The translations under genes and the position numbers were made by a program. A stretch of 64,000 nt of DNA from contig CAVOJZ010000002.1 of the NCBI GenBank assembly GCA_963696395.1, positions 720,619 to 784,618 on the forward strand. The letters are read 5' to 3'. The notes beneath the pieces are model-generated. The model saw only the letters and a program-made list of their open reading frames with translations. It had not been told where the DNA came from and searched no databases. Source of the DNA: an uncultured bacterium. GTDB lineage: Bacteria > Patescibacteriota > Minisyncoccia > UBA6257 > 2-01-FULL-56-20. Shown piece after piece: positions 8,859-36,629 of this stretch. Position 1 is the first letter of the stretch, and the number at the start of each line of letters is the position of its first letter.

Positions 8859-8927
8859 AAATAACGCCCATATTATTGAGAACAAGAGTGAGCAACAAAA
8901 AAACACCGGAAAAGCGGTGTTTTTTCT

Positions 8928-9398: not shown

Positions 9399-9604
9399 AT
9401 GCAGTTAATTATAGGGTAGTGCCTGCGCAGCCGCAAGAATTAAGGTGTGGATTGCTCAAGCTCAGTTATTTGAGGCAAGGCTTCATTTTTTTGTCGATAT
9501 TATTTCTAGCAGAACAATTTATCCACAGGCAGTCAAATTTTAGCCATGTATAATGAATTCAGGTAACTCGGCAGTCGAGTTTTGGCAAATATCGCCCCTC
9601 GAGA

Positions 9605-13235: not shown

Positions 13236-13262
13236 AAAGGTCGCGAATAATAAATTACTGAC

Positions 13263-13691
13263 ATGCGCGAAACAATTAATTTAGCGGAACAGCACGACGT
13301 ACCACGGCCCCGTCGGGGGAGAATGCTTATCACGGTGATCGTTGTCGTTGCGGTTGTTCTACTTGGATGGTGGTACGTGAATGGCGCAACGCAATGGAAA
13401 GCGGTTTTTCTTACGAACAACCAGGTATACTTTGGACATTTTTGGGATGTTCCGTTTGCCGGGACGATTACCCTCAGGAACGTGTACTATCTCCAATTTT
13501 CAACACCGGGTCAACAACTCGACACTCAGGATCAATCGCAGCTGAAGCTGGTGAAACTTGGAAGTGAGATCCACGGTCCGACCGATGAGATGGTGATCCC
13601 TATATCGCAGGTGCTTTTCTGGGAGACACTCCGCTCCGATAGTGCGATCGTAACGACCATCAAGAATGGGCAGACTCAAACCACTCCATAA
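13263..13691 (+). CDS. small membrane-anchored hypothetical protein
   Basis: N-terminal TM segment (MLITVIVVVAVVLLGWWYV) and a 142-aa frame sitting inside the operon. Confidence 0.5.
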   Translation: MRETINLAEQHDVPRPRRGRMLITVIVVVAVVLLGWWYVNGATQWKAVFLTNNQVYFGHFWDVPFAGTITLRNVYYLQFSTPGQQLDTQDQSQLKLVKLGSEIHGPTDEMVIPISQVLFWETLRSDSAIVTTIKNGQTQTTP

Positions 13692-16007: not shown

Positions 16008-17073
16008 AAAAGTTGCCATCATCTCTCTTGTCTTTGTCTGCTCAGCGCTGCTTTTGCCTGCGGTGTCGTTTGCGCAATCCGCGGATTCAACTTCACTCAC
16101 CATCACGCCGCCGTTTTTCGAATTGAATGTGAGCCCCGGTGATTCGTGGTCGAGTTCGATCAGAGTGGTAAATACCAACGCAACCGATATTCAGGTTCAC
16201 GCGATCGTCATGGGCTTCGCTGCATCCGATGCCGAAGGGCACGGAAACTTTATCCCATTGTCCAATTTGTCGGGGGATAGCGATGCGCTCGCGAACTGGG
16301 TCACCGTTTCACCCTCCCCGATCACTGTGCCCCGGGGTGGTGCAACGGACGTCCCGTTTTCGATTTCGGTTCCATCGGACGCGTCACCCGGAGGCCATTA
16401 TGGCGCGATACTTATCGGAACGGGGGCGCCGACGGTTGCTTCGGGGACGTCGCAGGTCGGCGTGAGCAGCTATATTTCTGCACTGATTTTCGTGAGCGTC
16501 GCGGGCAATATAGTTAATTCGGCGCAAATCACTCAATTTTCAACAGACAAGGGTGCTTATCAGGCGCCGGATGTTCATTTCGCGGTCCGTGTACAAAATG
16601 ACGGCAATGTTCATGTGCGACCGGTTGGGTTCATTCAAATATACAACGCGTTCGGCAAGAAACGAGGTGAAATTCCTATAAATCAGTCGGGTAGTCTCGG
16701 ATATATCCTGCCGTCGAGCACCCGTGAATTCGATGTTGAATGGCAGGGAACGCCGAGTTTGCTTGATATCGGACCTTATACTGCCGTCGTGAGCCTTGCC
16801 TATGGGGAAAACGGCATCGACAGTATCTCGGAAACCGTTGGATTTTGGATTGTGCCAATTTGGCAGATTTTGGAGGTTCTTTTTGTGGCTTTGATCATCT
16901 CACTACTCTTTATATTTATCGTTCGTCGCTCCGTCCGGAAAATGCTTGCAAATGAGATGTCGCGATACGGCGAAATTCCGCCGTCGCAGCCAGAGCAAAA
17001 GAAAGCTTCCGAAAAAAAGAATAATTTATCATCCGGCGGGCACGACTCCGGAACTATCGACTTGAGAAGATAG
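16000..17073 (+). CDS. cell-surface protein, paralog of the anchor family (DUF916-like)
   Basis: Signal peptide. Conserved motif SPGGHYGAILIGTGAP. C-terminal TM (ILEVLFVALIISLLFIFIV) plus basic tail. Confidence 0.7.
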   Translation: MNKKVAIISLVFVCSALLLPAVSFAQSADSTSLTITPPFFELNVSPGDSWSSSIRVVNTNATDIQVHAIVMGFAASDAEGHGNFIPLSNLSGDSDALANWVTVSPSPITVPRGGATDVPFSISVPSDASPGGHYGAILIGTGAPTVASGTSQVGVSSYISALIFVSVAGNIVNSAQITQFSTDKGAYQAPDVHFAVRVQNDGNVHVRPVGFIQIYNAFGKKRGEIPINQSGSLGYILPSSTREFDVEWQGTPSLLDIGPYTAVVSLAYGENGIDSISETVGFWIVPIWQILEVLFVALIISLLFIFIVRRSVRKMLANEMSRYGEIPPSQPEQKKASEKKNNLSSGGHDSGTIDLRR

Positions 17074-17149
17074 GGAGCGATAGGCGATTGTGTATAACTT
17101 GCCGGCATTTTCGCGTTATAATACCTTCAAGAGCGAAATTTTTCTTTGC

Positions 17150-18286
17150 ATGCGGATTAATCGATCAACTTTAAGAAAAGACTTGTCTGTTTCGGCGGCG
17201 CTCGGTCTTTTTATCAGCATCACCTTGTGGACTGCCGGTTTTCAATATTTACCGATTGTTCATGCGGCGAGCCTTACTTCGGTGAAAGATACAATGAGCG
17301 ACTCCCGCCCCGGATATCCGGCTAACCACACGATCGTCTTCACGAATCCGTCTTCAACAGCAGCCGGACTCACCATTTCATACACCTTCGACCCCAATAC
17401 CAGCGCATTCGGCAGTGTCACTTCAACGAGTATTGCGAACGTTACTTCCACCGGTATGACCATCGTCTCCACCTGTTCGGCCGGCACCAACAACGTGAGT
17501 ATGGCAACAACCTCATATAACGTGCTCACCTTCACGGTCTGCGCGAGTAATACGGTTGCATCCGGAACGGTGACTCTGAAGATTCTCGGCAACACCATCA
17601 CGAACCCCACGAGCACCGGATCCTACATCATCCGCATCGGCGGCACCCAGCCGAGCTCGGCTGATACGCGTGTTGCCATTGTGAACGGCGTCAATGTGAC
17701 GGCCGCGGTTGCAACCACCTTCACTTTCACGGTTTCTCCGCTTGCGACATCAACCACACTCCTGAATAATGCGACGACGACGGGTAATGACACATCAACC
17801 ACTCTGCCGTTCGGAACCATCAGCCCGAATACCCACAACGAACTCGGTCAACAGCTCAACGTCACAACGAATGCTTCAAACGGGTTCGCGGTTACCATGC
17901 ATGAAGACCAGGACATGACAAGCAACAAGGGGAATGTCATCCACGTCTTCTCAAACGGAAACGCAACTTCAACGCCGAGCCCGTGGACTTCACCGCAGAA
18001 CATCATTAACCAGTCATGGACCTACGGTCATGTCGGTATCACGAGCGACGACGTGAGCAGCAGCATCGTCGGAGGACCGAATTTCGGAACCAGCACCCCG
18101 CTCTACGCAGGAAGTTTCAATCCGACATCAACGCTCACGGTATTCCTCTGGAATGGCCCGGCCGATGGCGTCACCCAGAATGTGGGAGCCGCGAAAGTTG
18201 CGGTGCGTATCGAAATCAGCCCTCTGCAGGCAGCCGCAAACGACTACACGAACAACCTAATCTACGTAGCGACGCCGGTGTTCTAA
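17150..18286 (+). CDS. secreted Thr/Ser-rich surface protein, tandem duplicate copy A (WxL-like C-terminus)
   Basis: Signal peptide. The mature region is about 99% identical to 18417..19553. Ends ...ANDYTNNLIYVATPVF. Start taken at the Met of MRINRSTLRKDL, by analogy with copy B. Confidence 0.7.
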   Translation: MRINRSTLRKDLSVSAALGLFISITLWTAGFQYLPIVHAASLTSVKDTMSDSRPGYPANHTIVFTNPSSTAAGLTISYTFDPNTSAFGSVTSTSIANVTSTGMTIVSTCSAGTNNVSMATTSYNVLTFTVCASNTVASGTVTLKILGNTITNPTSTGSYIIRIGGTQPSSADTRVAIVNGVNVTAAVATTFTFTVSPLATSTTLLNNATTTGNDTSTTLPFGTISPNTHNELGQQLNVTTNASNGFAVTMHEDQDMTSNKGNVIHVFSNGNATSTPSPWTSPQNIINQSWTYGHVGITSDDVSSSIVGGPNFGTSTPLYAGSFNPTSTLTVFLWNGPADGVTQNVGAAKVAVRIEISPLQAAANDYTNNLIYVATPVF

Positions 18287-19556
18287 GGATTAGGGGGTGT
18301 TGACAACAATGGAAATAGGTTGTGGATAACTACCCTTGAAATGTTGACAACTTGTTATGATACAATTATTACAAATGGAAATCGGGTCGATTTCCTACAT
18401 AAAATAAAATAAAAATATGTTAGCCAACTCGCGGAAACTCAGAAAAGACTTAACGGTCGCAATCACCTTCGGACTTCTCATCAGCCTTATCACGTGGTCG
18501 GTTGGTTTTCGATATCTCCAAACTGTGCATGCGGCCAGTTTGACGTCGGTTAGCGACACTTTGAGCGACTCCCGCCCCGGATATCCGGCTAACCACACGA
18601 TCGTCTTCACGAATCCGTCTTCAACAGCAGCCGGACTCACCATTTCATACACCTTCGACCCCAATACCAGCGCATTCGGCAGTGTCACTTCAACGAGCAT
18701 CGCGAACGTTACTTCCACCGGTATGACCATCGTCTCCACCTGTTCGGCCGGCACCAACAATGTGAGTATGGCAACAACCTCGTATAACACGCTCACCTTC
18801 ACGGTCTGCGCGAGTAATACGGTTGCATCCGGAACGGTGACTCTGAAGATTCTCGGCAATACCATCACAAACCCCACGAGCACCGGATCCTACATCATCC
18901 GCATCGGCGGCACCCAGCCGAGCTCGGCCGATACACGTGTTGCCATTGTGAACGGCGTCAATGTGACGGCCGCGGTCGCAACCACCTTCACTTTCACGGT
19001 TTCTCCGCTTGCGACATCAACCACGCTCCTGAATAATGCGACGACGACGGGTAATGATACCTCAACCACCCTGCCGTTCGGAACCATCAGTCCGAATACC
19101 CACAACGAACTCGGTCAACAGCTCAACGTCACAACGAATGCCTCAAACGGGTTCGCGGTTACCATGCATGAAGACCAGGATATGACGAGCAACAAGGGGA
19201 ATATCATCCACGTCTTCTCGAACGGAAACGCAACTTCAACGCCGAGCCCGTGGACTTCACCGCAAAATATTATCAACCAGCCATGGACCTACGGCCACGT
19301 CGGTATCACGAGCGATGACGTGAGCAGTACTTTGGTGGGTGGACCAAACTTCGGAACCAGCACCCCGCTCTACGCAGGAAGTTTCAATCCGACATCAACG
19401 CTCACGGTATTCCTCTGGAATGGCCCGGCCGATGGCGTCACCCAGAATGTGGGAGCCGCGAAAGTTGCGGTGCGTATCGAAATCAGCCCTCTGCAGGCAG
19501 CCGCAAACGACTACACGAACAACCTAATCTACGTAGCGACGCCGGTGTTCTAAGGA
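17270..19556 (+). repeat. direct tandem duplication of about 1.02 kb (two gene copies, about 99% nucleotide identity) separated by a unique spacer
   Basis: The coding sequence GAGCGACTCCCGCCCCGGATATCCGGCTAACCACACGATCGTCTTCACG... through ...ATCTACGTAGCGACGCCGGTGTTCTAAGG occurs twice. Only a handful of substitutions separate the copies. Confidence 0.85.
18417..19553 (+). CDS. secreted Thr/Ser-rich surface protein, tandem duplicate copy B
   Basis: The nucleotide sequence from about 18530 to 19556 is near-identical to 17270..18290. The signal peptide and upstream region diverge. Confidence 0.7.
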   Translation: MLANSRKLRKDLTVAITFGLLISLITWSVGFRYLQTVHAASLTSVSDTLSDSRPGYPANHTIVFTNPSSTAAGLTISYTFDPNTSAFGSVTSTSIANVTSTGMTIVSTCSAGTNNVSMATTSYNTLTFTVCASNTVASGTVTLKILGNTITNPTSTGSYIIRIGGTQPSSADTRVAIVNGVNVTAAVATTFTFTVSPLATSTTLLNNATTTGNDTSTTLPFGTISPNTHNELGQQLNVTTNASNGFAVTMHEDQDMTSNKGNIIHVFSNGNATSTPSPWTSPQNIINQPWTYGHVGITSDDVSSTLVGGPNFGTSTPLYAGSFNPTSTLTVFLWNGPADGVTQNVGAAKVAVRIEISPLQAAANDYTNNLIYVATPVF

Positions 19557-19609
19557 AAAGAGGGTCTTGCAGGCGGGTTCATATATGCTAGACTCAATTC
19601 ATAACCACG

Positions 19610-20716
19610 ATGGATATATTACGATCGGTGGGCGGATGGGCGGGTCGAGTGGCAGCTGGAGCAGCAATGGTTTTTGTTGCGAGCGTCGTCTTCCCCGCAG
19701 GTGTTTCGCATGCTCAGACCGCCGTTTCAATGAAAATTCAACCGGCGCTTTTCGAGCAAACGGTTAATCCCGGCGATAAATTTTCGACATCATTAACAGT
19801 CACAAACCCGGGAACCACCGCGAAGCAATTCTCGGTCGGTGTGCAGGATATCACCGGAATCGATCAGGCAGGTGAGCCGATCTTCAGCTCATCATCCGTT
19901 CCGGAATATGGCGTAAGCTCATGGGTGCAGCTTGGCGATACGGCAATAACGATTCCCGCGGGAGGGAGCGTTACCGTGCCATTCACGATAATGGTTCCGA
20001 AGAACGCCGGCCCCGGAGGGCATTACGGTGCGATTTTCATTTCCTCCGGCGCGACCCGGCCGCAATTTAACGGAACAGGACTTGGCTATGAAGTTGGTTC
20101 GCTCATTGAGCTTCGGATCGCCGGTGACGCGACCGAACAGGCGGAGATCAAAGAATTTTCAACCGACAAATCGTTGTATCAAACCCCGAATGTGACTTTT
20201 ACCGCCTCCGTCGCAGATGAGGGCAATATTCTTCTTCAGCCGCGGGGTCCGATCGATATCGTAAATATGTTTGGGCAGAAAGTGGGAACCGTTGTCATAA
20301 ACGACCAGGGTTCATCAATCTTCCCCGGCGATCAGCGCGCCTTCAATGTGACGTGGAACGGTGGCGGATTCATGTTTGGCCAATACAGCGCCGTTATGAC
20401 CTTGAATTATGGTGACACCGTAAATAAATCCATCTCGGCGTCATTGTCATTCTGGGTTGTTCCGATTATGCCGATCGTCGCTGTTCTCGCAAGCATCATA
20501 TTCTTTGTCCTGATATTCGTCTGGTCCGTTAAGGTGTATGTCCGCAAGCGCGTCCGATCCATGACCGGTGGTCGCCAGGAACGGTCATCTTCATCCGACG
20601 AAGAAACGTTGCTTTCGGGAGGCGGATTGCCACTCTCTCGCCTTGTATTCATCGTCATTGCGACCGCCATCTTCGCAGTCATTTTCTTGATCGCCCTATT
20701 CTTCTTCTTCGGATAA
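19610..20716 (+). CDS. cell-surface protein, paralog of the anchor family (DUF916-like)
   Basis: Signal peptide. Motif GPGGHYGAIFISSGATRP. C-terminal TM (IMPIVAVLASIIFFVLIFVW), a basic/Ser-rich linker, and a second hydrophobic segment at the very C-terminus. Confidence 0.7.
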   Translation: MDILRSVGGWAGRVAAGAAMVFVASVVFPAGVSHAQTAVSMKIQPALFEQTVNPGDKFSTSLTVTNPGTTAKQFSVGVQDITGIDQAGEPIFSSSSVPEYGVSSWVQLGDTAITIPAGGSVTVPFTIMVPKNAGPGGHYGAIFISSGATRPQFNGTGLGYEVGSLIELRIAGDATEQAEIKEFSTDKSLYQTPNVTFTASVADEGNILLQPRGPIDIVNMFGQKVGTVVINDQGSSIFPGDQRAFNVTWNGGGFMFGQYSAVMTLNYGDTVNKSISASLSFWVVPIMPIVAVLASIIFFVLIFVWSVKVYVRKRVRSMTGGRQERSSSSDEETLLSGGGLPLSRLVFIVIATAIFAVIFLIALFFFFG

Positions 20717-20723
20717 TAATTTC

Positions 20724-21095
20724 ATGAGAAAGCGGACGGTTTTGCTTCTCATCATGTTGGCGGGAGTCGCTTGTGTTTTCTTTTTTGTCGCTCGTGGGCG
20801 GGTTGCTTCACTTCCCAGCCTCATGGCGCAAATCGGCATAACGGTTGGCGTGGCACCGAATCCGTACAACACTTTAAACGATCAGCTTAATCAGGAACAG
20901 AATCAGCTGAATCAGCAGGCGGCCGATCTTGCGGCTCGCGAAGCGGCGCTCGCCAGTTCAACGGCCGCCGCCGATGCAGTTTCCTACACCGACTGGTATT
21001 TGAGTGCCGGGATTGCGGCCGTTGCGATTCTTGTTTCCCTGAATTTTTATCTTGATTGGCGGCGCGCCAAGCGGGAAGAAACACCTAAAGTGTAG
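20724..21095 (+). CDS. small membrane protein with a coiled-coil loop
   Basis: Two TM helices flank the loop NDQLNQEQNQLNQQAADLAAREAALAS. Confidence 0.5.
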   Translation: MRKRTVLLLIMLAGVACVFFFVARGRVASLPSLMAQIGITVGVAPNPYNTLNDQLNQEQNQLNQQAADLAAREAALASSTAAADAVSYTDWYLSAGIAAVAILVSLNFYLDWRRAKREETPKV

Positions 21096-21118
21096 TTTTC
21101 ATCATATATAATAGAAGG

Positions 21119-22804
21119 GTGAAGCATCGACTCCAAAGATTGAGTATTCTCACGGCGGCGTGCCTCGCCATTTTTTCTTTTGCGAAAGCGCTTCCGGTCG
21201 CGCATGCTTCCCAATTGTCGTTTGTGAGCGATACCATCAACGACTCCAGATTATCATGGCCCACCAACCACCAGATCGTTTTTAAGGTCCCGAGCGGCAT
21301 ACCGGCCTCCGGCCAGATTGTTGTCGCGTTTGAAGGGGCGCCGTTTTTCATCGATCCCTCGTTCAGCTATACCGACGTGGATCTTGCCGTATCCACGGTT
21401 TCGCCAACTTCCGGCTTTGTCGAAAGACCTCTCGCGGGCATCCCCGGTTTTTTAAATGACGGCGTTGCCATAACTCCAACGACGGGTCCCATCACTATCA
21501 CATTGGCATCCAGCGTGGGTATTCCAGCGGGTGCGTATGTTCGAATTATGCTTGGCACGAATGCTCCCGGCGGTGTGTACCAGATTACCAATCCGGCAAC
21601 GACGGCGTCCTATCGCATTCTTCTTAATACTTTCGATCAACTCGGAGGCAATCTTGATTATGGTGCGGCAATGGTTGCAATTCTGCCCGCGATTGGTGTT
21701 AGCGCAAACACCGATGTGGTAAATCCACCAGTACTATCTAACGGCATGCCCTCAGGAACGATCCCTTCGAACGTTTCGGGAGTGCTCGTTTCTTTCAATA
21801 CCGATACGTACGCGACGTGTCACTATGCAACGTCGTCCGGAATTTCCTATGACGATATGACAAACGTCACGGCCGACGATGAGCTCGGCACAACGCATAC
21901 TTTTAATGTCGACGGCATCACGCAAGGGACGACCTATACGTTTTATGCCCGGTGCGAAGACTTTGCAGGAAATAAAAATCCGAGTGATTATATTATTTCT
22001 TTTACCGCCGGTGATCCAACAGGCGCTCCCGGTTCGGGAGGAGGCGGAGGGGGAGGCGGCGGCGCACCATATCCACCCGGCGCGCCAGGGCCCTCGCTCA
22101 CGTTGAGTGGTTTTACCGTGCCCAACGCAACCATCGTCGTCTTGCAGGACGGATCGAAGATCGCGCCAGCCACCACTGCGGATAATGGGGGATCATTTTC
22201 AGTGAGTATCGCATCTCTCCCGCAAGGAACTTATTCCTTTACCATTCAGGCATTGGGAACCGGCTCAACCGTGATTTCTTCGTACACGGCGACCATAACG
22301 CTCATTACCGGAACGTCGAATAGTATTACCGGAATCGTGATGCCCCCGTGGATCGGATTCGCGACAAGCTCGGTAGCCCTTAATAAATTATTTGCAATGT
22401 CGGGTTTGGCCGAGCCTTCATCAACTATCGATATTGTCGTTACGAGTCAGGCGGGAGTGCGAGGCATTTTCGAGGCAACAACTTCCGCAAATCAAAGCGG
22501 CGCATGGGCGTATTCGCTTTCGACGGCCGGATTCCCGATGGACACGTACCAGGTGAAAGCGCGAGCATTCATAACCGGGCTCGCTGCAAGCAATTTTTCC
22601 ACGATATCCTTCCTTGGCGTCGGTGAAACTCCGGTGCCGAAACTGAAAATAGGGGATTTAAACGGTGATAACAAAGTGAATCTTGTGGACTTCTCAATCA
22701 TGCTCGCCCATTGGGGGACGAGCTATGCCCCGGCCGACTTAAATGACGATGGCATCGTCGACCTTCCGGATTTAAGCATTTTACTTTTCAACTGGACGGG
22801 CTGA
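21119..22804 (+). CDS. secreted surface protein with a C-terminal dockerin module
   Basis: Signal peptide. The N-terminal domain is related to 17150/18417 (SDTINDSRLSWPTNHQIVFKVP versus SDSRPGYPANHTIVFTNP). A poly-Gly linker is present. The C-terminus carries two dockerin Ca-binding loops: DLNGDNKVNLVDFSIML...DLNDDGIVDLPDLSILLFNW. Confidence 0.75.
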   Translation: MKHRLQRLSILTAACLAIFSFAKALPVAHASQLSFVSDTINDSRLSWPTNHQIVFKVPSGIPASGQIVVAFEGAPFFIDPSFSYTDVDLAVSTVSPTSGFVERPLAGIPGFLNDGVAITPTTGPITITLASSVGIPAGAYVRIMLGTNAPGGVYQITNPATTASYRILLNTFDQLGGNLDYGAAMVAILPAIGVSANTDVVNPPVLSNGMPSGTIPSNVSGVLVSFNTDTYATCHYATSSGISYDDMTNVTADDELGTTHTFNVDGITQGTTYTFYARCEDFAGNKNPSDYIISFTAGDPTGAPGSGGGGGGGGGAPYPPGAPGPSLTLSGFTVPNATIVVLQDGSKIAPATTADNGGSFSVSIASLPQGTYSFTIQALGTGSTVISSYTATITLITGTSNSITGIVMPPWIGFATSSVALNKLFAMSGLAEPSSTIDIVVTSQAGVRGIFEATTSANQSGAWAYSLSTAGFPMDTYQVKARAFITGLAASNFSTISFLGVGETPVPKLKIGDLNGDNKVNLVDFSIMLAHWGTSYAPADLNDDGIVDLPDLSILLFNWTG

Positions 22805-22844
22805 TTTGTTATACTGTCTTATATAGAGGTGTCTATGTATTGAT

Positions 22845-23411
22845 ATGAGCTCTTTCTACGAAAAATTATCGGTGAAATTTCAGGATGGCGGGATCTCGGC
22901 ACCCGGCACCGGCACCGCGCCCGCAAAAACGGTCACTTTTAATGCGACCGGAGACCGAACTTCGCCAAAAAAAGCTGACGTCCCAGCCGCAACTCCACCG
23001 ACTGACGTGACGCCGGACGGCGCCGACCCGATTGATGTCGACCTTTTTCAATCCGAAACGCGGACCGTTGTTTTTATGCAATTGAGTGGCATTCCGGCGA
23101 ATGAACTTGCGGTGACGGTAAGCGAGGAATCAAACACGATCATTGTTGAGGCAGCGCAAAAACGTCCGGGTCTGCCTCCGTTACCCGGCGCAAAAGAAGG
23201 GGAACCGCCAGAGAAAGGAATCTATGTTAAGGCGGAGGTAAAGTGGCGCTCGCTGTACCGCAAGATCTATCTCCCGGCACCGTTTGATATCAGCGAAGCG
23301 ACCGCCACGCTCGACAAGGGCGTGCTCATTATAGTGTTGCCGGCAAAACATCCGGGCGTCGGCAAAAAAATGGTGGTTCAGGAAATCCGGCACGATGAAC
23401 AGAAAAAATGA
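22845..23411 (+). CDS. Hsp20/alpha-crystallin domain protein
   Basis: Alpha-crystallin domain motifs: IDVDLFQSETRTVVFMQLSGIPANELAVTV.EESNTIIVEA ... YRKIYLPAPFDISEATATLDKGVLIIVLPAK. The stop overlaps the start of the cohesin-like gene (ATGA). Confidence 0.7.
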   Translation: MSSFYEKLSVKFQDGGISAPGTGTAPAKTVTFNATGDRTSPKKADVPAATPPTDVTPDGADPIDVDLFQSETRTVVFMQLSGIPANELAVTVSEESNTIIVEAAQKRPGLPPLPGAKEGEPPEKGIYVKAEVKWRSLYRKIYLPAPFDISEATATLDKGVLIIVLPAKHPGVGKKMVVQEIRHDEQKK

Positions 23412-25186
23412 GGAAAGGGACATATCTTATTCTCGTCGCCCTTGGGTGGCTCATCGTTAGTCCGGGCATTTTTAATATCGCGGCGGCGCAAACGGCAGGA
23501 GGAAACGCCGCGCTCTCACTTTCACCTTCGAGCGGCTCGCACGCCGTCGGAGAAACGTTTACGGTGAGTGTCATGTTGGATTCCGGCGGCGGCGTGGGCG
23601 TAAATGCCGCCAATGGCGAATTGAGTTTTGACCCGACTCTCCTTGCGGTGCAAAGCGTTTCAAAAGACAATTCTATTTTTAATCTTTGGACGAGCAACCC
23701 TTCATTCTCGAATTCGCAGGGCACCGTTGATTATAGCGGCGGCAGCAACAATGCTTACACCGGAAATTCCGGGGATGTGGTTGATGTGACGTTTAAAGCG
23801 CTCGGTGCCGGCTCTGCGAATATAAAATTTGCATCGGCAAGCGCGCTTGCAGCCGATGGCCAGGGAACAAACGTCCTCGGCGGCACGACGGGCGCCGCCT
23901 ATACCATCGGAGGGGCGGCCGCAAAGCCGGCGGTGCCGGCATCGAATCCCGGATCCTCGCAGTCGCTCGCAAGCCCGGCGCAGGCTCCGTTCACGGTGAC
24001 GATCGCGGTCACATCTCCGACGCATCCGGATCCAAGTGCGTGGTACAACAACAACAGCCCGAATTTCACATGGGTACTCACGCCTGACGTTGCAGGCGTA
24101 AGCACTGCGCTCGATCAGAACCCGGGCACATATCCGAAGCGATCTTCTGCCGGCTTACTGTCGTCCAAGCAATATTCCGCCGTGCCGGAGGGGACATCGT
24201 ATTTCCATGTGCGTTTTGAAGATGCCCTTGGCGATTGGAGCGACCCAGTCAACTATCAGGTAAACATCGACGTGACGCCGCCGTTGCCCTTTACGGTGAG
24301 CGCTCTCACGGGTGCGGGTGTGAGCGGCAGGACCGAATTGATGTTCAATGCGACCGATACCGTTTCAGGGATCGATCATTACGTTGCAACGTTCGACGGA
24401 ACCATGTCGTCAACGATTGCATTGTCGGATGTCCAGAACGGCATATATACTGCTCCGCCGCTCCTGGCCGGCAAACATATTGTTGAAATAAGTGCATTCG
24501 ACAAGGCAGGCAATTATACGAGTGAAAATACCGAATTCACGATTTCCGGAGTTACGATGCCGGAGATCACTAATTTCCCAGCGACCGTCATCGAGAAATC
24601 TCCGATTGTTTTCGAAGGCATCGCCGACAGCGGGGCAAATGTTACGGTTGATATCAACGATGGCACCGGGAAAACGGTATCCGAGGGCAAGATGGTTGCC
24701 GATGAAACGGGCCATTGGCTGTACGCCGTCGAGAGCGGACTTTCAACCGGCAAGTATGCTCTCGGCGTTTCGATGGTTACAACGCAGGGTGCGTCCGTGA
24801 GTTCGACCGACAAATTGTTCCTCAATGTCATCATGGCCCCGTTCCTGGATCGATTCGGTTGGATCCTCATCATCCTTTTGCTGTCGTGCATCGGTGGACT
24901 TCTAACGTACGGCATGTACAAGAAGAAGATCCACGAAATGCAGCTCGCGCTTGCGAAACGGGAAAACGAAGAAGCGCGCGAAAAAACCAGGGCAGTGTTT
25001 GAAGCGCTGCGTGAGGAAATGGATGACCAGATCAGCCATATGGAAGGCGGTGCGGCGCAGGCGCAAGGTGAGGCCAAGCTTGAACCAGAGCGCGTCCTTG
25101 ATGAAGTGCGCAATGCGCTGGTGATTTCTGAGACGACCATTCAGAAGGAGATCGAGGACGTCAATAAGGCTCTCAATGAAGAATAA
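23408..25186 (+). CDS. membrane-anchored cohesin-like domain protein with a cytoplasmic coiled-coil tail
   Basis: Signal peptide. Cohesin-like N-terminal domain (SLSPSSGSHAVGETFTVSVMLDSGGGVGVNAANGELSFDP.LLAVQSV...SIFNLWTSNP...VVDVTFKALGAGSANIKF), then Ig-like domains. TM helix (FGWILIILLLSCIGGLLTYGMY), then a charged coiled coil of about 90 aa. Confidence 0.7.
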   Translation: MRKGTYLILVALGWLIVSPGIFNIAAAQTAGGNAALSLSPSSGSHAVGETFTVSVMLDSGGGVGVNAANGELSFDPTLLAVQSVSKDNSIFNLWTSNPSFSNSQGTVDYSGGSNNAYTGNSGDVVDVTFKALGAGSANIKFASASALAADGQGTNVLGGTTGAAYTIGGAAAKPAVPASNPGSSQSLASPAQAPFTVTIAVTSPTHPDPSAWYNNNSPNFTWVLTPDVAGVSTALDQNPGTYPKRSSAGLLSSKQYSAVPEGTSYFHVRFEDALGDWSDPVNYQVNIDVTPPLPFTVSALTGAGVSGRTELMFNATDTVSGIDHYVATFDGTMSSTIALSDVQNGIYTAPPLLAGKHIVEISAFDKAGNYTSENTEFTISGVTMPEITNFPATVIEKSPIVFEGIADSGANVTVDINDGTGKTVSEGKMVADETGHWLYAVESGLSTGKYALGVSMVTTQGASVSSTDKLFLNVIMAPFLDRFGWILIILLLSCIGGLLTYGMYKKKIHEMQLALAKRENEEAREKTRAVFEALREEMDDQISHMEGGAAQAQGEAKLEPERVLDEVRNALVISETTIQKEIEDVNKALNEE

Positions 25187-26930
25187 AAAAATAAGCGACT
25201 TTGGGCCGAGTTCGAAACCGCAAATAGTTATGTTGCGGGAGAGAATTTGGCGATTTGAAATCAGCCAAAGCAAAGTGAGGCGGTTTTTCCGTGACCACAA
25301 GCTGGGATCTATTATCGGACTTATCATTATCCTTTCCCTGATTGTGGTGCGGTTTGCGTTTGTCGGCTTTGCGAGCACGGCCGATTTTTATCCGTCGTCA
25401 TGTCTTGGCAACTGGGAAAATGTCCAAAACGCACTCGGAAAACCAGACCTTCCCCCTGGGGCGTCACAGGAAGCTTTTACGATGCTCAACTCGGCGTATT
25501 TCGGTACGAGCACGGCACAAATGTTCTGCGGAAATTTTACGGGCGACACGGACATTGCGGCGCTCACCGGCAAATCATTTCAGGAAGCCGACCTCATTCT
25601 CTCCTGGTCGTTTGTATTTCCGCAGGAAGCGACCACAACTCTTGCAACAACGACGGACTCAAGCACTGACGCAGGAGGGGGTGACGGCGGAGCCGATGAG
25701 ATCGCTCCTGAAGCAACATCAACGACTTCGACCGATCTTTCCTCCGCCTCATCTGACGCAAGCAGCATCTCAAGTTCAACAGATGAAAGCCTTCCGGTAG
25801 TAACTAGCACCGATGCAAGCGATTCACAGCCATTGCCACAGGATGTGAGTTCCAGTGATGCAACCGCGAGTGATGCGAGCGATGCCGCTCCTGCGGTAGC
25901 ACCGCCGGCGCCAGCGCCAACGACGACACAGGATGAATCTCCTGCGCCGGCTCCGGCTCCTGAACCTGCGTCAACGACCGATTCCGACGGGTCGGCTTCC
26001 GACAGTCAACCAACTTCGTGGTTGTGGAATTTTGTTGGCGTTGCATTTGCCGACGACTCGTCGTCGCTCGCGATCGATACGAGCACAGCAAGCTCCACCG
26101 ATTCATCAACGTCAATCGAGGCGACATCTTCGGCGGAAATCGGCGTGCCGGTGGAACCTCAGCCCGCACCGATCAGCGTGAACACTTCCCAGTTTCAAAA
26201 TATCGTTTTGCCGTCGAGTACCGCGAATGCGATTCTTGGTATCGTTTATTCGACGGACGGAGTGACATGGCAACCTGTCGTGAACATCGATGCTTCGAAC
26301 TGGCAGACCGCGCGTTATGTCATCCCCATACACTCATGGGTCGAACTCGAACATCTGCAGGTGGCTTTTGTCGGACTCGGTGCTTCCAGCTCGCCTCAGA
26401 TATTTCTCGATTCTGCGGGCGTCGAAGTGAGCTATGCCGACGCTCCACCGGATCCGAATACCGATACACAAGCAACCGATACGGTTTCGGAGGCTCCGTC
26501 TTCGACTGCCGGTCAGGTTATGCCGCCAACGCCGGTGCAACTTCCGCCAGTCCAGGCATTTAGGCAGGTTTTTTATCCTTTCGCCGGTCAGCAATGTTCC
26601 GTCATGCCTTTTTCCGAATCCATTCCGCCCGGCGGTGGCGGATCGTTTATTCTAAAACTCACTCCACCGGCCGCCGCAACGTCGTCGCTCAAAAAACCTC
26701 AGCAAAATAGCCCGCCGCTATACGACGCTTCACTTGGGGCGCTCCCCACCGGTATTTCCGCAGACATTATCCAGACGGGCCCCGGCATGGACACCGTTGG
26801 GGTGACAACAGCCCCCGATGTTCCACCGGGTTCTTATAACGCGGTCGTTGTATATAAAGAGCGACAACACGACGGAACGGTTGAGCCGAATTTTTGCCAG
26901 TTCAACATCGTGATAACGAGTCCGTCATAA
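25176..26930 (+). CDS. membrane-anchored low-complexity (Ser/Thr/Asp/Ala/Pro-rich) surface protein
   Basis: N-terminal TM anchor (LGSIIGLIIILSLIVVRFAFVGFA). Long acidic S/T/D/A/P stalk. Globular C-terminal region. Confidence 0.55.
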   Translation: MKNKKISDFGPSSKPQIVMLRERIWRFEISQSKVRRFFRDHKLGSIIGLIIILSLIVVRFAFVGFASTADFYPSSCLGNWENVQNALGKPDLPPGASQEAFTMLNSAYFGTSTAQMFCGNFTGDTDIAALTGKSFQEADLILSWSFVFPQEATTTLATTTDSSTDAGGGDGGADEIAPEATSTTSTDLSSASSDASSISSSTDESLPVVTSTDASDSQPLPQDVSSSDATASDASDAAPAVAPPAPAPTTTQDESPAPAPAPEPASTTDSDGSASDSQPTSWLWNFVGVAFADDSSSLAIDTSTASSTDSSTSIEATSSAEIGVPVEPQPAPISVNTSQFQNIVLPSSTANAILGIVYSTDGVTWQPVVNIDASNWQTARYVIPIHSWVELEHLQVAFVGLGASSSPQIFLDSAGVEVSYADAPPDPNTDTQATDTVSEAPSSTAGQVMPPTPVQLPPVQAFRQVFYPFAGQQCSVMPFSESIPPGGGGSFILKLTPPAAATSSLKKPQQNSPPLYDASLGALPTGISADIIQTGPGMDTVGVTTAPDVPPGSYNAVVVYKERQHDGTVEPNFCQFNIVITSPS

Positions 26931-26979
26931 TTGGGGGCGTTGTATACGTGGTAGAATAATTGGGTAATCATCCGGTTCT

Positions 26980-29517
26980 ATGACCCGCTATTTTTTAGTA
27001 TTTCTCATACTTGGCCTGTTTTTTTTCGTTCCACACGCCGAAGCGGCAACCTGGTATAACACGGCTTGGGGTTATCGAAATTTATTGACGATCAACGCTT
27101 CGAAGGTTTCATCGTCAAGCGTCACGACCTCAACTTACGTCAATTTTCCTGCCTTGGTGAGTTTTGCCACGAGCAGCCAGCTTGCATCGGCGGCGCAAGC
27201 GAGCGGTACCGACATTCTTTTTACCGACAGTGACGGCGCAACCTTATTGAACTTCGAAATCGAGCACTATACGAGTAGCACGGGAGAACTTGAAGCGTGG
27301 GTAAAAATACCGCTGGTTTCAACTTCCACGAATACAAATTTTTATATGTATTACGGGAATCCTTCCGCGACATCCAGTTTGCAAAACGTGACCGGAACAT
27401 GGAATAGCTATTACACATCGGTTTGGCACTTTCCGAGTATCAACGGCACCACAACCTTTTCGGCAAAAGACTCATCTGGAGACGGTAATAACGGCACCAT
27501 CGTCGGCGGTGCGACGAGTACGGTTGGGCAGATTGACGGCGCGGCAAATTTTAACGGGAAAAGCCAAGATATTACAACTCCCTATGTGCAAGTTTCGTCA
27601 ACTGCTTACACCGTTGAAGCCTGGATAAAAATTCCTTCGACTGCAACGACAACTCAAGTGATAGTAAATGACCGAGGCAGCGGCGCTGGCCACTCGCTCA
27701 CCCTCGCCCTCGACGGCAACCTTGCCTGCGGCAGCACATCCTGTGGCGGCACGCTTGGCAGCGTGGGAAGTCCGACCGGTAAGCTGATGTTCGGTGACGA
27801 CTCAAATAACATCTGGATCGGCACTGAGGCAAGCAACACAGCGATCAATGACGGTAACTGGCATTTCGTCGCCGGATCATGGACAGCGACTTCCGGCGTG
27901 GCCATTGCTCCAAGCCAGTTTAAGGTTTATGTCGACGGTGCGATACCGGTGACAGCGACATCAGGCAATACGGGAACCGACAGTTCGCCGCTGACCGGTC
28001 TTGCAAGTACTACGATCGCATACCATGCGCCATGGACCGCCTACTTCACGGGTGCGATCGACGAATTGCGCATCGCAGAAAAAAATTTGTCGGCCGCATG
28101 GATTGCGACCGAGTATAACAATCAAAAATCGCCCGCAACGTTCATCACGACCGCTCCGCAGGAGACCCCGCCGGCTTTCACGCAGTCCGATTTTCGATGG
28201 TTTGCAAACATTGCTTCGAGTTCCGTTGGATCGCCGCTTGCTGCGCAAAACACAACGACAACGGCGCAGTTGGTAACCAGCTCGACTTTTCGATTACGCA
28301 TGCTCATACGGGTGACCGGCAGTCAGCTCAATTCCAGTTCGCAAGCGTTCAATCTCCAATATGTGGATGCCGGGACCGGCAGTTGCACAGCTCCATCCGG
28401 GGGAAATCCGGCGAGTTATTCAAATATTTCAACATCAACCGGATTATTCCAGTATTTCAGCAATGCAGGCGTCACGGACGGTGGCCCTCTCGTGCCGACG
28501 AGCACCGATCCGGTTGACGGAACGAGCACAGTCGTCAACGAAACCTACGACCAATCCAATCCGTATTCGGATTCCCAGGGAGCGATACCGGCGACCGCGG
28601 ATGGAAAATGGGATTTTTCGCTTACCGACAGCGGGGCAAAAGTTGGGACAACCTATTGCTTCCGCGGGGTTACGGCGAGCGGCACTGCGTTTTCTTCTTA
28701 TGCCGTTTATCCAACGGTTGTGATTGGTAACGTCGCTCCAGCGGTTAGTGCGGTCACCTTGAATGGGAATAACAGCATTACCCTCATCGTCGCAACAACC
28801 ACTTTGATCCAGGCAACGGGGACGGTGAGTGACGGCAATGGATATACTGACATCGCGACAACCACTGCGGTAATCTATCGAACGAGCCTTGGCCAAAATT
28901 GTTCGCCTGATAATAACGACTGCTATATAACACCTGCTTGTTCTTTGAGCTCGTGCTTCGGGACGACGTGCAATGCCACGTGCGGCGCCCAGATATGGTA
29001 TTTTGCCCAACCAACCGACTCGGGAACACCGTGGTCGGGCGATTCATGGTCGGCGGCGATAAACGCAACCGATTTTTCAAATGCCACGGGGACAGCGACA
29101 AGCACCGGCGTCCAGCTTTTGTCGCTTCTCGGACTTCAGGTTGCGTCGTCAATCAGTTACGGATCTTTTATCCCCGGACAAACTATGGCTTCGCTCACGG
29201 TACCGGTCGCCATAACCTCAGTCGGTAATGTTTCCTTAAATGTCACATTGTATGGCACTAATATGACGAGCGGGGCAAACAGTGTTGCAGTTGGAAATCA
29301 ACACTACGCAACATCGGTCCTGTCTTTTGCGGCGGGCACTGCGTTGCTCGCCAATCCCGGCACGACTGTGGCGCTTGCAATACCCAAAACAACCTCGACG
29401 AATCCTGGAAGTACGCTTATAGATTGGGGAATTGCCATCCCGAGCCCCCAGGCGTCAGGGAATTTTACGGGAGTAAATACGTTTATCGGCGTGGAGAATT
29501 CGCTGCCGTGGCCATAA
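26980..29517 (+). CDS. secreted protein with DUF2341-like and LamG/concanavalin-A-like lectin domains and the shared C-terminal module
   Basis: Signal peptide. DUF2341-like N-terminus (WYNTAWGYRNLLTIN...TNFYMYYGNPSA). Laminin-G-like beta-sandwich (TVEAWIKIPS...GNWHFVAGSW...FKVYVDGA). The C-terminus aligns with 33629 (…GVNTFIGVENSLPWP). Confidence 0.7.
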   Translation: MTRYFLVFLILGLFFFVPHAEAATWYNTAWGYRNLLTINASKVSSSSVTTSTYVNFPALVSFATSSQLASAAQASGTDILFTDSDGATLLNFEIEHYTSSTGELEAWVKIPLVSTSTNTNFYMYYGNPSATSSLQNVTGTWNSYYTSVWHFPSINGTTTFSAKDSSGDGNNGTIVGGATSTVGQIDGAANFNGKSQDITTPYVQVSSTAYTVEAWIKIPSTATTTQVIVNDRGSGAGHSLTLALDGNLACGSTSCGGTLGSVGSPTGKLMFGDDSNNIWIGTEASNTAINDGNWHFVAGSWTATSGVAIAPSQFKVYVDGAIPVTATSGNTGTDSSPLTGLASTTIAYHAPWTAYFTGAIDELRIAEKNLSAAWIATEYNNQKSPATFITTAPQETPPAFTQSDFRWFANIASSSVGSPLAAQNTTTTAQLVTSSTFRLRMLIRVTGSQLNSSSQAFNLQYVDAGTGSCTAPSGGNPASYSNISTSTGLFQYFSNAGVTDGGPLVPTSTDPVDGTSTVVNETYDQSNPYSDSQGAIPATADGKWDFSLTDSGAKVGTTYCFRGVTASGTAFSSYAVYPTVVIGNVAPAVSAVTLNGNNSITLIVATTTLIQATGTVSDGNGYTDIATTTAVIYRTSLGQNCSPDNNDCYITPACSLSSCFGTTCNATCGAQIWYFAQPTDSGTPWSGDSWSAAINATDFSNATGTATSTGVQLLSLLGLQVASSISYGSFIPGQTMASLTVPVAITSVGNVSLNVTLYGTNMTSGANSVAVGNQHYATSVLSFAAGTALLANPGTTVALAIPKTTSTNPGSTLIDWGIAIPSPQASGNFTGVNTFIGVENSLPWP

Positions 29518-29542
29518 TTATGCATGGTAAAATGAAAGTATT

Positions 29543-31027
29543 ATGCGTTTGCGTTATCTGATTGCCGTGGTTATCGTGGTGTCGGCGCTCGCCGCCGCTC
29601 CGTTCGTCTTTCGACGGGTGAGCGCCGACTCTTCGCCGACGATTTCAGATGTCTCCTTGGCGAACGTCGGCGCCACGTCCACCGTGCTCACGTGGACGAG
29701 TGACGTGAAGACAGACAGTTATGTTGATGTGAGTCAGGATACCAATTACTGCGGAATCCGGAATTCCGGAGGGTTGGACACATCTCACAGTGTTGCCGTT
29801 CCAAACCTTGAACCCGATACAACCTATTTCTTCAGGATCCGCTCGACCGATGCGAATGGTAATCAGAGTTTTTCGGGCGATTACACATTCACAACAACAA
29901 GTACGGGGAATACGCCGAGCCTGAGTTCGATCGCGAATCCGCAGCAACAAAGCCTTGCCGCCAAGGCAATTTCAGCCATCCAACAGATCGCGAGCCCGCA
30001 GGCATTGAGCGCCGTACAGCAATCACTTAATGCGCAGGCAAGCCAGGTGGTTGGGCCGCCAAAAATTTTAGGAAACCCTCAAATTGACATTGGAACCGAT
30101 CAAGCGACGATATCATGGAATACGGATGAGAATGCGAATGGGGTGGTTTATATCGCTTCAGACGCGGAATACAGTCCGGGTTCCTCGAACCCTTATTCGC
30201 GCGAAGAGCAGGACACGAACGACAGCACTCAATCGCACCAGGTTGTCGTGTACGGGTTGAACCCTTCAACGCTCTACCATTACCAGGTTTCCTCGCAGGG
30301 ATCGCTTGGCGATGCCGGAACAAGCGGAGATCTCACATTCACAACGAAAGCGGTTCTGCCAAACATTTTGAATCCGCACCTCGTAAAGGTGGGCGAGCAT
30401 GATGCGACAGTGAGTTGGGGCACGCCCCTGCCTTCTGCCGGGACGGTGACTTACGAAAACCTCTCAACAAGACAATCGGCCTCCGTTGGCGACCCGTCAT
30501 TCCTCGTGACCCACATCATCCAGCTCACCAATCTCATTTTCCAAACACGATATTCATTGACGATCCAGGCGACGAATCAGGCGGGGGATATTGTCACGAG
30601 CCAGCCGCTATATTTTGTAACAACAAAAAATATTATCCCGCCGATTATCTCGCAGGTTAATAACGATTCGACGCTCTATCCGGGGCAGGATACGACGGTT
30701 CAAACGGTGATTTCCTGGCAAACCGACGAACCGGCATCATGCAATCTTTCCTACGTGACGGGCGGCGCGACTGCGGAGGCGGATGTTGTCTCGTCAACGC
30801 CGGAAGCTGCATTTCTCACGAAACATGTGGATGTGGTCACTAACTTCGAGCCGGCAACCGTTTATAAGTATTGGGTTACGTGCACGGATACCGATGGAAA
30901 TACGACAAGCTCGGAGGATTTCGTCTTGCTTACGCCGGAACAGCAAAAGAGCATCGTTGACCTTATTATCGACAACTTTAAAGGTACGTTTGGCTGGTTG
31001 AATGGTGTCGGCGGCGCAAAAAAATAA
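29543..31027 (+). CDS. secreted/anchored protein with three FN3-like (purple-acid-phosphatase-N-like) domains
   Basis: N-terminal hydrophobic segment. The motif SxxxTSTVLTWTSD...TTYFFRIRSTDANGN...YTFTT is repeated three times. The stop lies 1 nt before the ABC ATPase start. Confidence 0.65.
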   Translation: MRLRYLIAVVIVVSALAAAPFVFRRVSADSSPTISDVSLANVGATSTVLTWTSDVKTDSYVDVSQDTNYCGIRNSGGLDTSHSVAVPNLEPDTTYFFRIRSTDANGNQSFSGDYTFTTTSTGNTPSLSSIANPQQQSLAAKAISAIQQIASPQALSAVQQSLNAQASQVVGPPKILGNPQIDIGTDQATISWNTDENANGVVYIASDAEYSPGSSNPYSREEQDTNDSTQSHQVVVYGLNPSTLYHYQVSSQGSLGDAGTSGDLTFTTKAVLPNILNPHLVKVGEHDATVSWGTPLPSAGTVTYENLSTRQSASVGDPSFLVTHIIQLTNLIFQTRYSLTIQATNQAGDIVTSQPLYFVTTKNIIPPIISQVNNDSTLYPGQDTTVQTVISWQTDEPASCNLSYVTGGATAEADVVSSTPEAAFLTKHVDVVTNFEPATVYKYWVTCTDTDGNTTSSEDFVLLTPEQQKSIVDLIIDNFKGTFGWLNGVGGAKK

Positions 31028-31028
31028 T

Positions 31029-32339: not shown

Positions 32340-32349
32340 TTTTTATATC

Positions 32350-33555: not shown

Positions 33556-33628
33556 GCTGGGCTTTGTGGCTCACTTGTGGATAACCGGTCTTTTTCTGGG
33601 GATAGCATAGGGTATAATTATAGTAATT

Positions 33629-35458: not shown

Positions 35459-35577
35459 TCTTTTATACACGGGATTTCCCCATTACAGAAAAAGCGTGTG
35501 TTTGTGTGGTATTATTACGTGAGGAGTCGGACGGGCTTGGAAGCTGACCCGGTTTTATTTTTTTCGGCGACGTCGCG

Positions 35578-36600: not shown

Positions 36601-36629
36601 GTGCCTGTTGTAAATAAAAAAGACGAATC

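Follow-up and report, generated by a model that had tools for sequence, protein, structure and literature searches.

Small heat shock proteins (sHSPs) are regarded as promiscuous, stress-induced holdases. Precedents for proteins with an alpha-crystallin domain (ACD) at the membrane or in the cell envelope are Lo18 of Oenococcus, Hsp17 of Synechocystis, Acr/HspX of M. tuberculosis, and the spore-coat protein CotM of B. subtilis; to our knowledge, none of these four is operon-coupled to a cohesin-dockerin system, and we know of no cellulosome system with an sHSP gene in its operon. Bacteria of the Candidate Phyla Radiation (CPR, Patescibacteria) are thought to be host-attached, and their surface machinery is almost wholly uncharacterised. 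The stretch of DNA analyzed in the present study (64 kb, hereafter referred to as the window) is part of a genome of Paceibacteria within this group, and the named relatives of its proteins carry the labels Candidatus Paceibacterota or Minisyncoccia. It contains an approximately 30-kb gene cluster for exported proteins, in which two genes of the Hsp20 family each adjoin a gene for a membrane-anchored cohesin protein: Hsp20-A with cohA (pair A) and Hsp20-B with cohB (pair B). Pair A forms an overlapping unit that is retained throughout one superclade of cohA relatives, and the best explanation as a whole is, in our tentative judgment, that Hsp20-A works as a holdase in the cytosol and is made together with the cohesin anchor cohA. 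The sHSP, cohesin, and dockerin families are all known, and the operon variant with an embedded sHSP was not found described; our literature search yielded no description of a cohesin-dockerin module in Patescibacteria, of an sHSP gene inside such a module, or of the PrsW-Hsp20 operon presented below.

The original prediction, made from the sequence of the window, had placed an Hsp20 gene next to each of two cohesin-like genes, and this arrangement was borne out by the open reading frame (ORF) coordinates and by matches to PF00011 and PF00963. Hsp20-A (22845..23411, plus strand, 188 aa) is a diverged sHSP paralogue that matched PF00011 (HSP20) with E=3.7e-8 and 33.8 bits against a cutoff of 20.8, and cohA (23408..25186, plus strand, 592 aa), a predicted type-I membrane protein, matched PF00963 (Cohesin; E=6.7e-10, 39.8 bits against a cutoff of 24.1) and Big_13. 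Directly upstream of the pair lies DOC561 (21119..22804, plus strand), which encodes a putatively secreted protein with immunoglobulin (Ig)-like domains and a C-terminal type-I dockerin (Dockerin_1, 23.6 bits against a cutoff of 22.9).

The AlphaFold2 (AF2) model of Hsp20-A places an ACD at a predicted local distance difference test (pLDDT) score of ~90 behind an N-terminus that is disordered over residues 11-50, and the top 50 matches in a Foldseek search of the PDB were all sHSPs (E down to 9e-8), the best being SpHsp16.0, the M. marinum sHSP, wheat Hsp16.9, MjHsp16.5, and Xanthomonas HspA; profile matches to Hsp16.5 and Hsp20.1 were also obtained. An alignment of 30 full-length homologues (46-68% identity) contained 34 invariant and 22 nearly invariant columns, mostly in the ACD and its loop. 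The protein differs from ordinary Hsp20s by an insertion of 2 aa before beta5 and a Pro-rich stretch of ~11-13 residues in the beta5-beta6 loop, and the invariant residues of this enlarged loop are Q105, R107, P108, P111, and E123-K124-G125 (QxRP...P...EKG). It also possesses a conserved N-terminal amphipathic helix, a Pro/Thr/Ala-rich linker of ~50 aa, and a C-terminal anchoring-type motif, KK(L/M)x(V/I)xE, which is kept in 30/30 sequences of the Hsp20-A lineage and is predicted to serve in oligomer formation. Hsp20-A is thus a true sHSP by fold, with insertions that are particular to its lineage, and its holdase activity is predicted. The N-terminal MxxFxxxL region that the original prediction had seen in both Hsp20s does not hold as written, since the two proteins begin with M-S-S-F-Y-E-K-L (Hsp20-A) and M-D-N-L-S-F-F-R-R-L (Hsp20-B); the element common to both is S-F-[FY]-x-x-L, shifted by two positions between them, variants of which (FFExL, FLDKL) head Patescibacterial Hsp20s generally and not only those linked to cohesins.

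Hsp20-A lacks a signal peptide, a transmembrane (TM) segment, and a lipobox, and its maximum hydropathy of 1.24 is below the TM threshold. In a hydropathy scan of the cluster products other than the ATP-binding cassette (ABC) ATPase and FtsX permease, a hydrophobic segment was absent only from Hsp20-A and Hsp20-B; it is exclusively C-terminal in the helix-turn-helix (HTH) protein that opens the cluster and N-terminal in all of the others. A cytosolic role of the two Hsp20s beside exported proteins fits with this result. The earlier suggestion of a moonlighting, surface-associated ACD protein, according to which Hsp20-A is exported non-classically and takes part in the extracellular cohesin-dockerin assembly, draws on its position among exported proteins only and on the fact that some sHSPs of other bacteria have been reported to be associated with the cell wall or spore coat. 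We found no evidence in its support; besides the missing export signals, Hsp20-A carries neither a dockerin nor a cohesin module and its N-terminal region is disordered and hydrophilic, which renders this suggestion highly improbable.

The stop codon of Hsp20-A and the start codon of cohA overlap in the sequence ATGA (23408..23411, plus strand). Among the 17 Hsp20-A/cohA junctions that were compared, a 4-nt overlap was present in 11, an 11-nt overlap in two, and a gap of +1 or +2 in two; the remaining two were those of L104 (80-nt gap) and L005, in which the called genes overlap by 32 nt (the prefix L denotes loci compared with the window). L174, which was looked up apart from this list, also has a 4-nt overlap. 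An extended -10 promoter-like box, TGTTATACT, is located at 22807..22815 (plus strand), 29 nt before the start of Hsp20-A in the 40-bp spacer that follows the dockerin gene, and in a search of the 70 nt before the Hsp20-A start codon, TGnTA[TC]A[AC]T was found, at a distance of 9-56 nt, in 13 of 16 distinct loci, against a background of 0.8% of 70-nt windows. No extended -10 box was detected before cohA in the loci examined. Considering the box before Hsp20-A, its absence before cohA, and the overlap, Hsp20-A seems to be the first gene of a transcription unit of which cohA is a part and which probably extends to the ABC transporter genes.

The coupling that had been proposed from the ATGA overlap is thus retained in the sense of operon coupling. 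A different reading of the same junction is that translation of Hsp20-A drives that of cohA by termination-reinitiation and that the ACD protein itself is secondary. This mechanism has been reported in a preprint for comEB-comEC of Bacillus subtilis (bioRxiv 10.1101/2020.12.30.424838), and the ATGA or overlapping junction of pair A is conserved and not preceded by a Shine-Dalgarno (SD)-like sequence before cohA. However, the constrained columns of the Hsp20-A protein listed above argue against a secondary role, a special device is unneeded where SD-less starts and overlaps are normal, and cohB already serves as the upstream ORF in sister clades; we consider this reading very unlikely. The missing SD before cohA was also considered as evidence of obligatory coupling and was dropped because SD-like sequences are rare cluster-wide and other gene pairs of the cluster overlap by 4 nt as well.

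Regarding the conservation of pair A, 33 full-length homologues of Hsp20-A (47-100% identity) were identified among 5.8 billion proteins, and its profile gave only 6 matches below 1e-30 and 89 below 1e-10 against 1.84 billion cluster representatives, which indicates that the lineage is rare. In the close clade, every context examined comprised a dockerin protein, Hsp20, and a cohesin protein, and synteny extended over the remainder of the cluster. A metagenome scan with the cohA/cohB alignment returned 80 loci; Hsp20 lay directly upstream of cohA in 13/13 close relatives (62-77% cohA identity) and in one of 67 distant relatives (28-39% identity), namely L104. The triad was also present in the intermediate relatives L170 (cohA identity of 41%, 4-nt overlap) and L171 (43%), and in the deep relatives L173, L174, and the P0201 contig (35-36%). 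The order dockerin-Hsp20-cohA occurs in 21/21 distinct loci of the superclade, over which cohA identity declines from 100% to 35% and Hsp20 identity to about 25-36%, and Hsp20 occurs in 0/66 loci outside it. The linkage that the original prediction had proposed to look for in related genomes is, therefore, conserved for pair A and not family-wide.

When 73 cohA-like proteins were placed in a neighbor-joining (NJ) tree, those linked to an Hsp20 fell without exception into one clade with a bootstrap value of 95.5%. An earlier tree had grouped L104 with the window clade as its sister in just 41% of replicates, and the position of L104 was resolved after the addition of L170, L171, L173, L174, and P0201. 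The Hsp20s of L104, L170, L171, L173, and L174 are tied to Hsp20-A by derived traits that are absent from the ordinary Hsp20 family, namely, the 2-aa insertion (in variants such as EESN, EEHD, and ENEND), an enlarged beta5-beta6 loop, and an extension of the C-terminus (PGxGKK). The Hsp20s of the deep group score between the hidden Markov model (HMM) profiles of the A lineage and the canonical family, and their placement in the A lineage accordingly rests on the shared indels and the cohA tree, not on the scores. Monophyly and the shared indels point to one insertion of Hsp20, followed by retention in every locus and gradual divergence; since the loci are phylogenetically linked, they represent one gain without an observed loss, not 21 independent events. 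The genes after cohA vary between groups (p584, a histidine kinase, Fic, a giant protein, or PIG-L with a GT4 glycosyltransferase), and an extra gene has been inserted upstream of Hsp20 in L171. The Hsp20-cohA junction was intact in every locus despite these changed flanks.

The 66 loci without Hsp20, flank permitting, mostly comprise p340, a DOC376-like dockerin gene, a cohB-like gene, and a cohA-like gene, sometimes with LamG and p609 genes in front, and cohB takes the slot in these sister clades that Hsp20 fills in the window. The arrangement (LamG)(p609) p340, dockerin, cohB-like, cohA-like represents a widespread and apparently undescribed surface module of metagenomic relatives (L102-L169; e.g., L112 3966..8582, L152, and L154); several loci have additional cohA-like copies, which in L130 and L135 are arrayed in tandem, up to five in number. 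The window has this module in two parts, DOC561-Hsp20-cohA and p609-p340-DOC376, and cohB has moved to 7872.

The cohA protein is composed of a signal peptide, a cohesin domain (34-168), a disordered S/T-rich linker, three Ig-like domains, of which the last is Big_13, a TM helix at ~483-501, and a cytoplasmic helical-hairpin tail of ~89 aa (504-592). In its AF2 model (mean pLDDT 85.9), the TM helix is prolonged into a long helix on the cytoplasmic side, and residues 560-591 form another helix; the cohesin-FN3 module of Clostridium perfringens GH84C (PDB 2w1n) was among the fold matches. The shorter cohB (7872..8858, plus strand, 328 aa) has a signal peptide, a cohesin domain, a single Ig-like domain, and a C-terminal TM helix according to Pfam and hydropathy. 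Its Pfam match is borderline (PF00963, 24.1 bits, exactly the gathering score; E=4.4e-5), and sequence comparisons identify it as a clear paralogue of cohA (phmmer 3e-15; aligned over the cohesin and TPPxPF...GIDHY...AGN domains). This domain order characterizes both proteins as single-cohesin membrane anchors, and not as multi-cohesin scaffolds, as opposed to the initial label of scaffold genes. The dockerin proteins end in a classical duplicated dockerin (DxNxDGxxxxxDF twice), orthologues of DOC561 precede Hsp20 in L001-L006, L170, L171, L104, L173, and L174, and a dockerin gene was found upstream of the cohesin gene(s) in most loci with the upstream flank on the contig; the dockerin proteins of the window had matches in 42-48 of the 67 distant loci. 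The locus is thus a cohesin-dockerin system with linked dockerin-bearing proteins, the cognate pairing of which is predicted, and it is not a cellulosome scaffoldin locus because each protein has one cohesin and no carbohydrate-binding module (CBM) and, beside their dockerins, the dockerin proteins contain Ig-like and DUF4215 domains only.

The cytoplasmic tail of cohA (24917..25183) contains the motif K-E-T-x-E ... F-x-A-L-R-E-E-V ... A-L-D-I-S-E-x-x-I-x-K-E-I-x-D-V-E-K throughout the family, and it is the most conserved region of cohA in the Hsp20-linked clade, with an identity of 0.77 versus 0.69 for the cohesin domain. This raises the alternative that Hsp20-A is not a chaperone, but an oligomeric adaptor that binds the tail and thereby gathers or fixes the cohesin receptors from the cytoplasmic side, a structural role comparable to the use of other ACD proteins as building blocks; the Pro-rich loop insertion and the N-terminal amphipathic helix would be possible interaction surfaces, and the translational coupling of the two genes fits with such a partnership. 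However, the motif is also kept in clades without a nearby Hsp20, in one of which the ratio of tail to cohesin identity is 0.98, and we regard an adaptor function as unlikely.

Pair B is not equivalent to pair A, with which the original prediction had grouped it. Hsp20-B (8928..9398, minus strand, 156 aa) matched PF00011 with E=2.1e-16 and 60.3 bits (cutoff of 20.8) and has the C-terminal motif KLEVRMD. It is convergent with cohB, immediately downstream of it as originally described, and the 69 bp between the two genes contain a bidirectional intrinsic terminator hairpin (8897..8926, both strands) with a 12-bp stem and a U-run on each strand (-18.2/-16.7 kcal/mol, z -3.3/-3.2). A sigma-70-like promoter at 9408..9436 (minus strand) consists of TTGCGG, a 17-nt spacer, and TATAAT, 9 nt from the ATG, which would yield a near-leaderless transcript, and the arrangement TTGC(G/A)N-17-TA(T/C)A(A/C)T recurs in L007, L009, and L172. 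Hsp20-B is accordingly predicted not to be co-transcribed with cohB. Its family has more than 770 matches in Patescibacteria, and its distance to the canonical Hsp20s is 0.58-0.63 (53-57% identity). Hsp20-A, in contrast, is separated from everything outside its own lineage by a distance of at least 1.75 and reaches only 36 bits on the canonical Hsp20 profile, on which Hsp20-B and the canonical proteins score 186-233 bits; the relationships between the Hsp20s were judged from these distances and scores.

The canonical family was surveyed in 79 loci from GTDB species with relatives of Hsp20-B (L011-L089), 77 of which were judgeable. A gene for a PrsW-family intramembrane protease directly preceded Hsp20 in the same orientation in 74 of the 77 (e.g., 7260..7952 before Hsp20 at 7974..8498 in L012, and 7161..7844 before 7863..8330 in L060), and the assignment was confirmed with PF13367 in 4/4 tested (E 1e-21 to 1e-30). 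A patatin-like phospholipase gene often follows the canonical Hsp20. Neither a cohA nor a cohB relative was found near these loci, and no PrsW homologue was found in the window, L001-L010, L104, or L170-L172. We found no paper linking PrsW and Hsp20 in bacteria in the literature search. From these comparisons, Hsp20-B appears to be a recent duplicate of the canonical PrsW-linked Hsp20. The closest genome, OY970358.1, contains a canonical PrsW-Hsp20 pair (L012) and an Hsp20-B orthologue adjoining cohB (L010); a general Hsp20 is, therefore, retained elsewhere in this genome, which makes Hsp20-A an extra paralogue.

The convergent order of cohB and Hsp20-B was observed in L007-L010 and L172. In L172, cohB lies at the opposite end of the cluster, directly after the ABC, FtsX, p609, p340, and DOC376 genes, and the other flank of Hsp20-B is a HhH-GPD gene instead of the HTH gene of the window; pair B was thus kept together through one rearrangement, and the adjacency is possibly meaningful. 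A historical accident without function, an explanation that concerns mainly pair B, has in its favor the convergent orientation, the strong terminator, the separate promoters, the closeness of Hsp20-B to the general Hsp20, and the observation of the adjacency in the close clade and L172 only. The persistence of the pair at opposite cluster ends and the separate canonical Hsp20 kept in the genome speak against it, and we assign it a very low probability; it is essentially excluded for pair A.

A more serious alternative is that Hsp20-A and Hsp20-B are both ordinary stress sHSPs without a specific client, and that the one at the head of a highly expressed secretion operon lends extra holdase or membrane-protective capacity while exported proteins are produced in bulk. 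Both keep all sHSP hallmarks, Hsp20-B is almost indistinguishable from the canonical family and independently transcribed, the tie of that family to a membrane protease suggests an envelope or membrane quality-control role, and most cohesin modules have no Hsp20. On the other hand, Hsp20-A is far more distant from the canonical family than Hsp20-B (at least 1.75 versus 0.6), it carries conserved lineage-specific insertions including the invariant loop, a separate general Hsp20 is kept in the genome, and no loss was observed in 21 loci although their context changed. Moreover, it evolves about as fast as its surface-protein neighbors, with 32% identity to its counterpart in L170 compared with 26-47% for exported neighbors. 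We regard generic proteostasis as possible, though rather unlikely.

Several points also weigh against a dedicated partnership of Hsp20-A and cohA. The mechanism is deduced from gene order, and a gene gained once could also have been retained in a clade by hitch-hiking within a tight operon. The 66 sister-clade cohesin loci have no adjacent Hsp20, which implies that the chaperone is not intrinsically required by the cohesin family. Four-nucleotide overlaps occur elsewhere in the cluster (p714/p376) and SD-like sequences are rare throughout, so that the overlap of pair A signifies operon coupling of a kind that is not unique to this pair. The ratio of tail to cohesin identity is only slightly higher in the Hsp20-linked clade (1.11) than in unlinked clades (0.62-0.98), and since the tail is conserved in clades without Hsp20 too, a tail-specific partnership is not demonstrated. 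Finally, Hsp20-B, with a promoter-like site and terminator of its own, is close to the general Hsp20. An Rfam scan of the whole window detected no RNA thermometer, including ROSE, and no other family, a search of the window for CIRCE with up to three mismatches gave no match, and only sigma-70-like or extended -10 boxes were seen at the Hsp20 genes, with the heat-shock control elements of CPR bacteria not being defined.

Taken together, we tentatively favor the co-production of a cytosolic holdase with its cohesin anchor. The comparisons show that the ancestor of one cohA superclade gained an sHSP gene between the dockerin gene and cohA and that this gene was kept as the first of a unit consisting of the extended -10 box, Hsp20-A, ATGA, cohA, and downstream genes, during which time Hsp20-A diverged strongly from the ordinary PrsW-linked Hsp20. 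Its product may act as an ATP-independent holdase made in a fixed temporal and stoichiometric relation to cohA, the role of which would be to keep the beta-rich cohA protein competent for export and insertion or to stabilise its conserved cytoplasmic coiled-coil tail, and it may act likewise on co-expressed exported proteins. Hsp20-B, the younger duplicate of the general Hsp20 beside cohB, would most likely be a general stress sHSP with at best a loose link to cohB. A stronger version, in which Hsp20-A is the first example of an sHSP turned dedicated biogenesis or assembly factor for the surface docking system, made only with its client, and keeps cohA or the dockerin partner competent for export or organises the cohA tail, appears doubtful to us, albeit conceivable.

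If the favored explanation is correct, Hsp20-A would clearly exemplify how an sHSP can specialise in a single client, here a membrane-anchored one, and the Hsp20-cohA link has been retained while the cohesin diverged to 35% identity. Hsp20-A and either cohA or DOC561 are a concrete pair of candidates. Under the stronger version, the dedicated role could matter in CPR bacteria, which have minimal chaperone and secretion machinery. The present results also define a cohesin-dockerin module of the cell surface that is widespread (p340, dockerin protein, cohB, and cohA) and has a lineage-specific variant, and bring to light the conserved PrsW-Hsp20 operon as a second candidate operon. If the stronger version holds, the near-universal PrsW-Hsp20 linkage would suggest that the Patescibacterial Hsp20 family functions mainly in envelope or membrane-protein quality control, not as a bulk heat-shock chaperone. 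The candidate pair and both operons are open to recombinant-protein work without any cultures of these bacteria.

The genes surrounding the two pairs make up a cell-surface cluster centred on the cohesin-dockerin docking pair, with two dockerin-tagged proteins, DOC561 and DOC376, adjoining the two single-cohesin anchors, and with a MacB-type ABC transporter. Its co-oriented part (9605..37760, plus strand; delimited by Pfam, hydropathy, and synteny in related contigs) runs in the order HTH_17 protein, p714...p123, DOC561, Hsp20-A, cohA, p584, LamG protein, fn3/PAP_N protein, ABC ATPase, MacB/FtsX permease, p609, p340, and DOC376. The first gene (9605..10012, plus strand) encodes an HTH_17 domain fused to a C-terminal TM helix and thus a regulator tethered to the membrane. 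The intergenic region in front of it has a conserved block that contains an extended -10 box, TGTATAAT (9547..9554, plus strand), and the short palindrome ACTCG-N5-CGAGT, and homologues of the HTH protein also lead operons of large proteins near cohA in the distant loci L120, L139, and L142. Approximately ten secreted or membrane proteins without an assigned function follow, with weak DUF11/CARDB, WxLIP_PGBD, and fn3_5 matches.

Downstream of cohA on the plus strand are the S/T-rich p584 (584 aa), a DUF2341/LamG protein of 845 aa (26980..29517, Pfam), an fn3/PAP_N protein of 494 aa (Pfam, within the co-oriented part), p609 (33629..35458, 609 aa), and the second dockerin gene, DOC376 (36630..37760, Dockerin_1 above the cutoff). 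We ruled out p609 as a third cohesin gene because comparisons with cohA and cohB revealed no similarity. The LamG/DUF2341 protein and p609 have a similar C-terminal region, ...IPKxTSTxxxSxxxxxWGxxxPxxxxxSGxxTGxNTFIxV..., which may represent a common sorting or anchoring module. On the other side of pair B, the gene for a BigFn3 secreted protein of 866 aa (5278..7878, plus strand; four Big_7, three fn3, and three Big_13 domains and a C-terminal PG_binding_1) overlaps the start of cohB by 7 nt; it has no counterpart at the same position in L007-L010 and is, therefore, a genome-specific addition beside cohB. A TATAAT box lies 6-10 nt before the start codons of BigFn3 (5265..5277), Hsp20-B (9408..9413), DOC561 (21104..21118), and p609 (33610..33628), and such boxes, together with the near absence of SD-like sequences across the cluster, suggest that leaderless or near-leaderless mRNAs are frequent in this bacterium. 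A GGDEF-EAL protein for cyclic di-GMP turnover is encoded at 45766..47358, ~8 kb downstream of the surface cluster, and may be relevant to the regulation of surface structures. NCBIfam provided no specific family for any protein of the cluster, giving only sub-threshold sHSP matches.

Among known systems, the nearest to Hsp20-A are the bacterial and archaeal sHSPs IbpA/IbpB, MjHsp16.5, Xanthomonas HspA, and the M. marinum sHSP, together with wheat Hsp16.9, with which it shares the alpha-crystallin beta-sandwich, the beta6 dimerisation loop, a disordered N-terminal region with a short hydrophobic helix, and a C-terminal L/I/V-x-I/V motif. It is unlike them in the insertion before beta5, the Pro-rich beta5-beta6 insertion, and the long Pro/Thr/Ala-rich linker, and its gene leads a surface-protein operon and overlaps the gene for a membrane-anchored cohesin, in place of a stand-alone or ibpAB-type stress locus. 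The PrsW-Hsp20 operon contains the same Hsp20 family and an FFxxL-type N-terminal motif as in the Hsp20s of the window, neither of which has the PrsW gene upstream. A comparison with SecB-type holdases and type III secretion chaperones is a works-like analogy only, based on a small cytosolic protein that is encoded directly upstream of an exported client and translated together with it; Hsp20-A, as an ACD protein, has no relation to them in sequence or fold, and its client binding is putative. Cellulosomal scaffoldins and non-cellulosomal cohesin-dockerin pairs resemble the window in their Pfam-level cohesins and adjoining dockerin genes. Unlike cellulosomes, however, the proteins of the window have one cohesin each and no CBM, their dockerin partners carry no glycoside-hydrolase domains, and cohA is held in the membrane by a TM helix in its C-terminal part, followed by a coiled-coil tail in the cytoplasm, in place of the S-layer homology (SLH) or sortase anchoring of cellulosomal systems.

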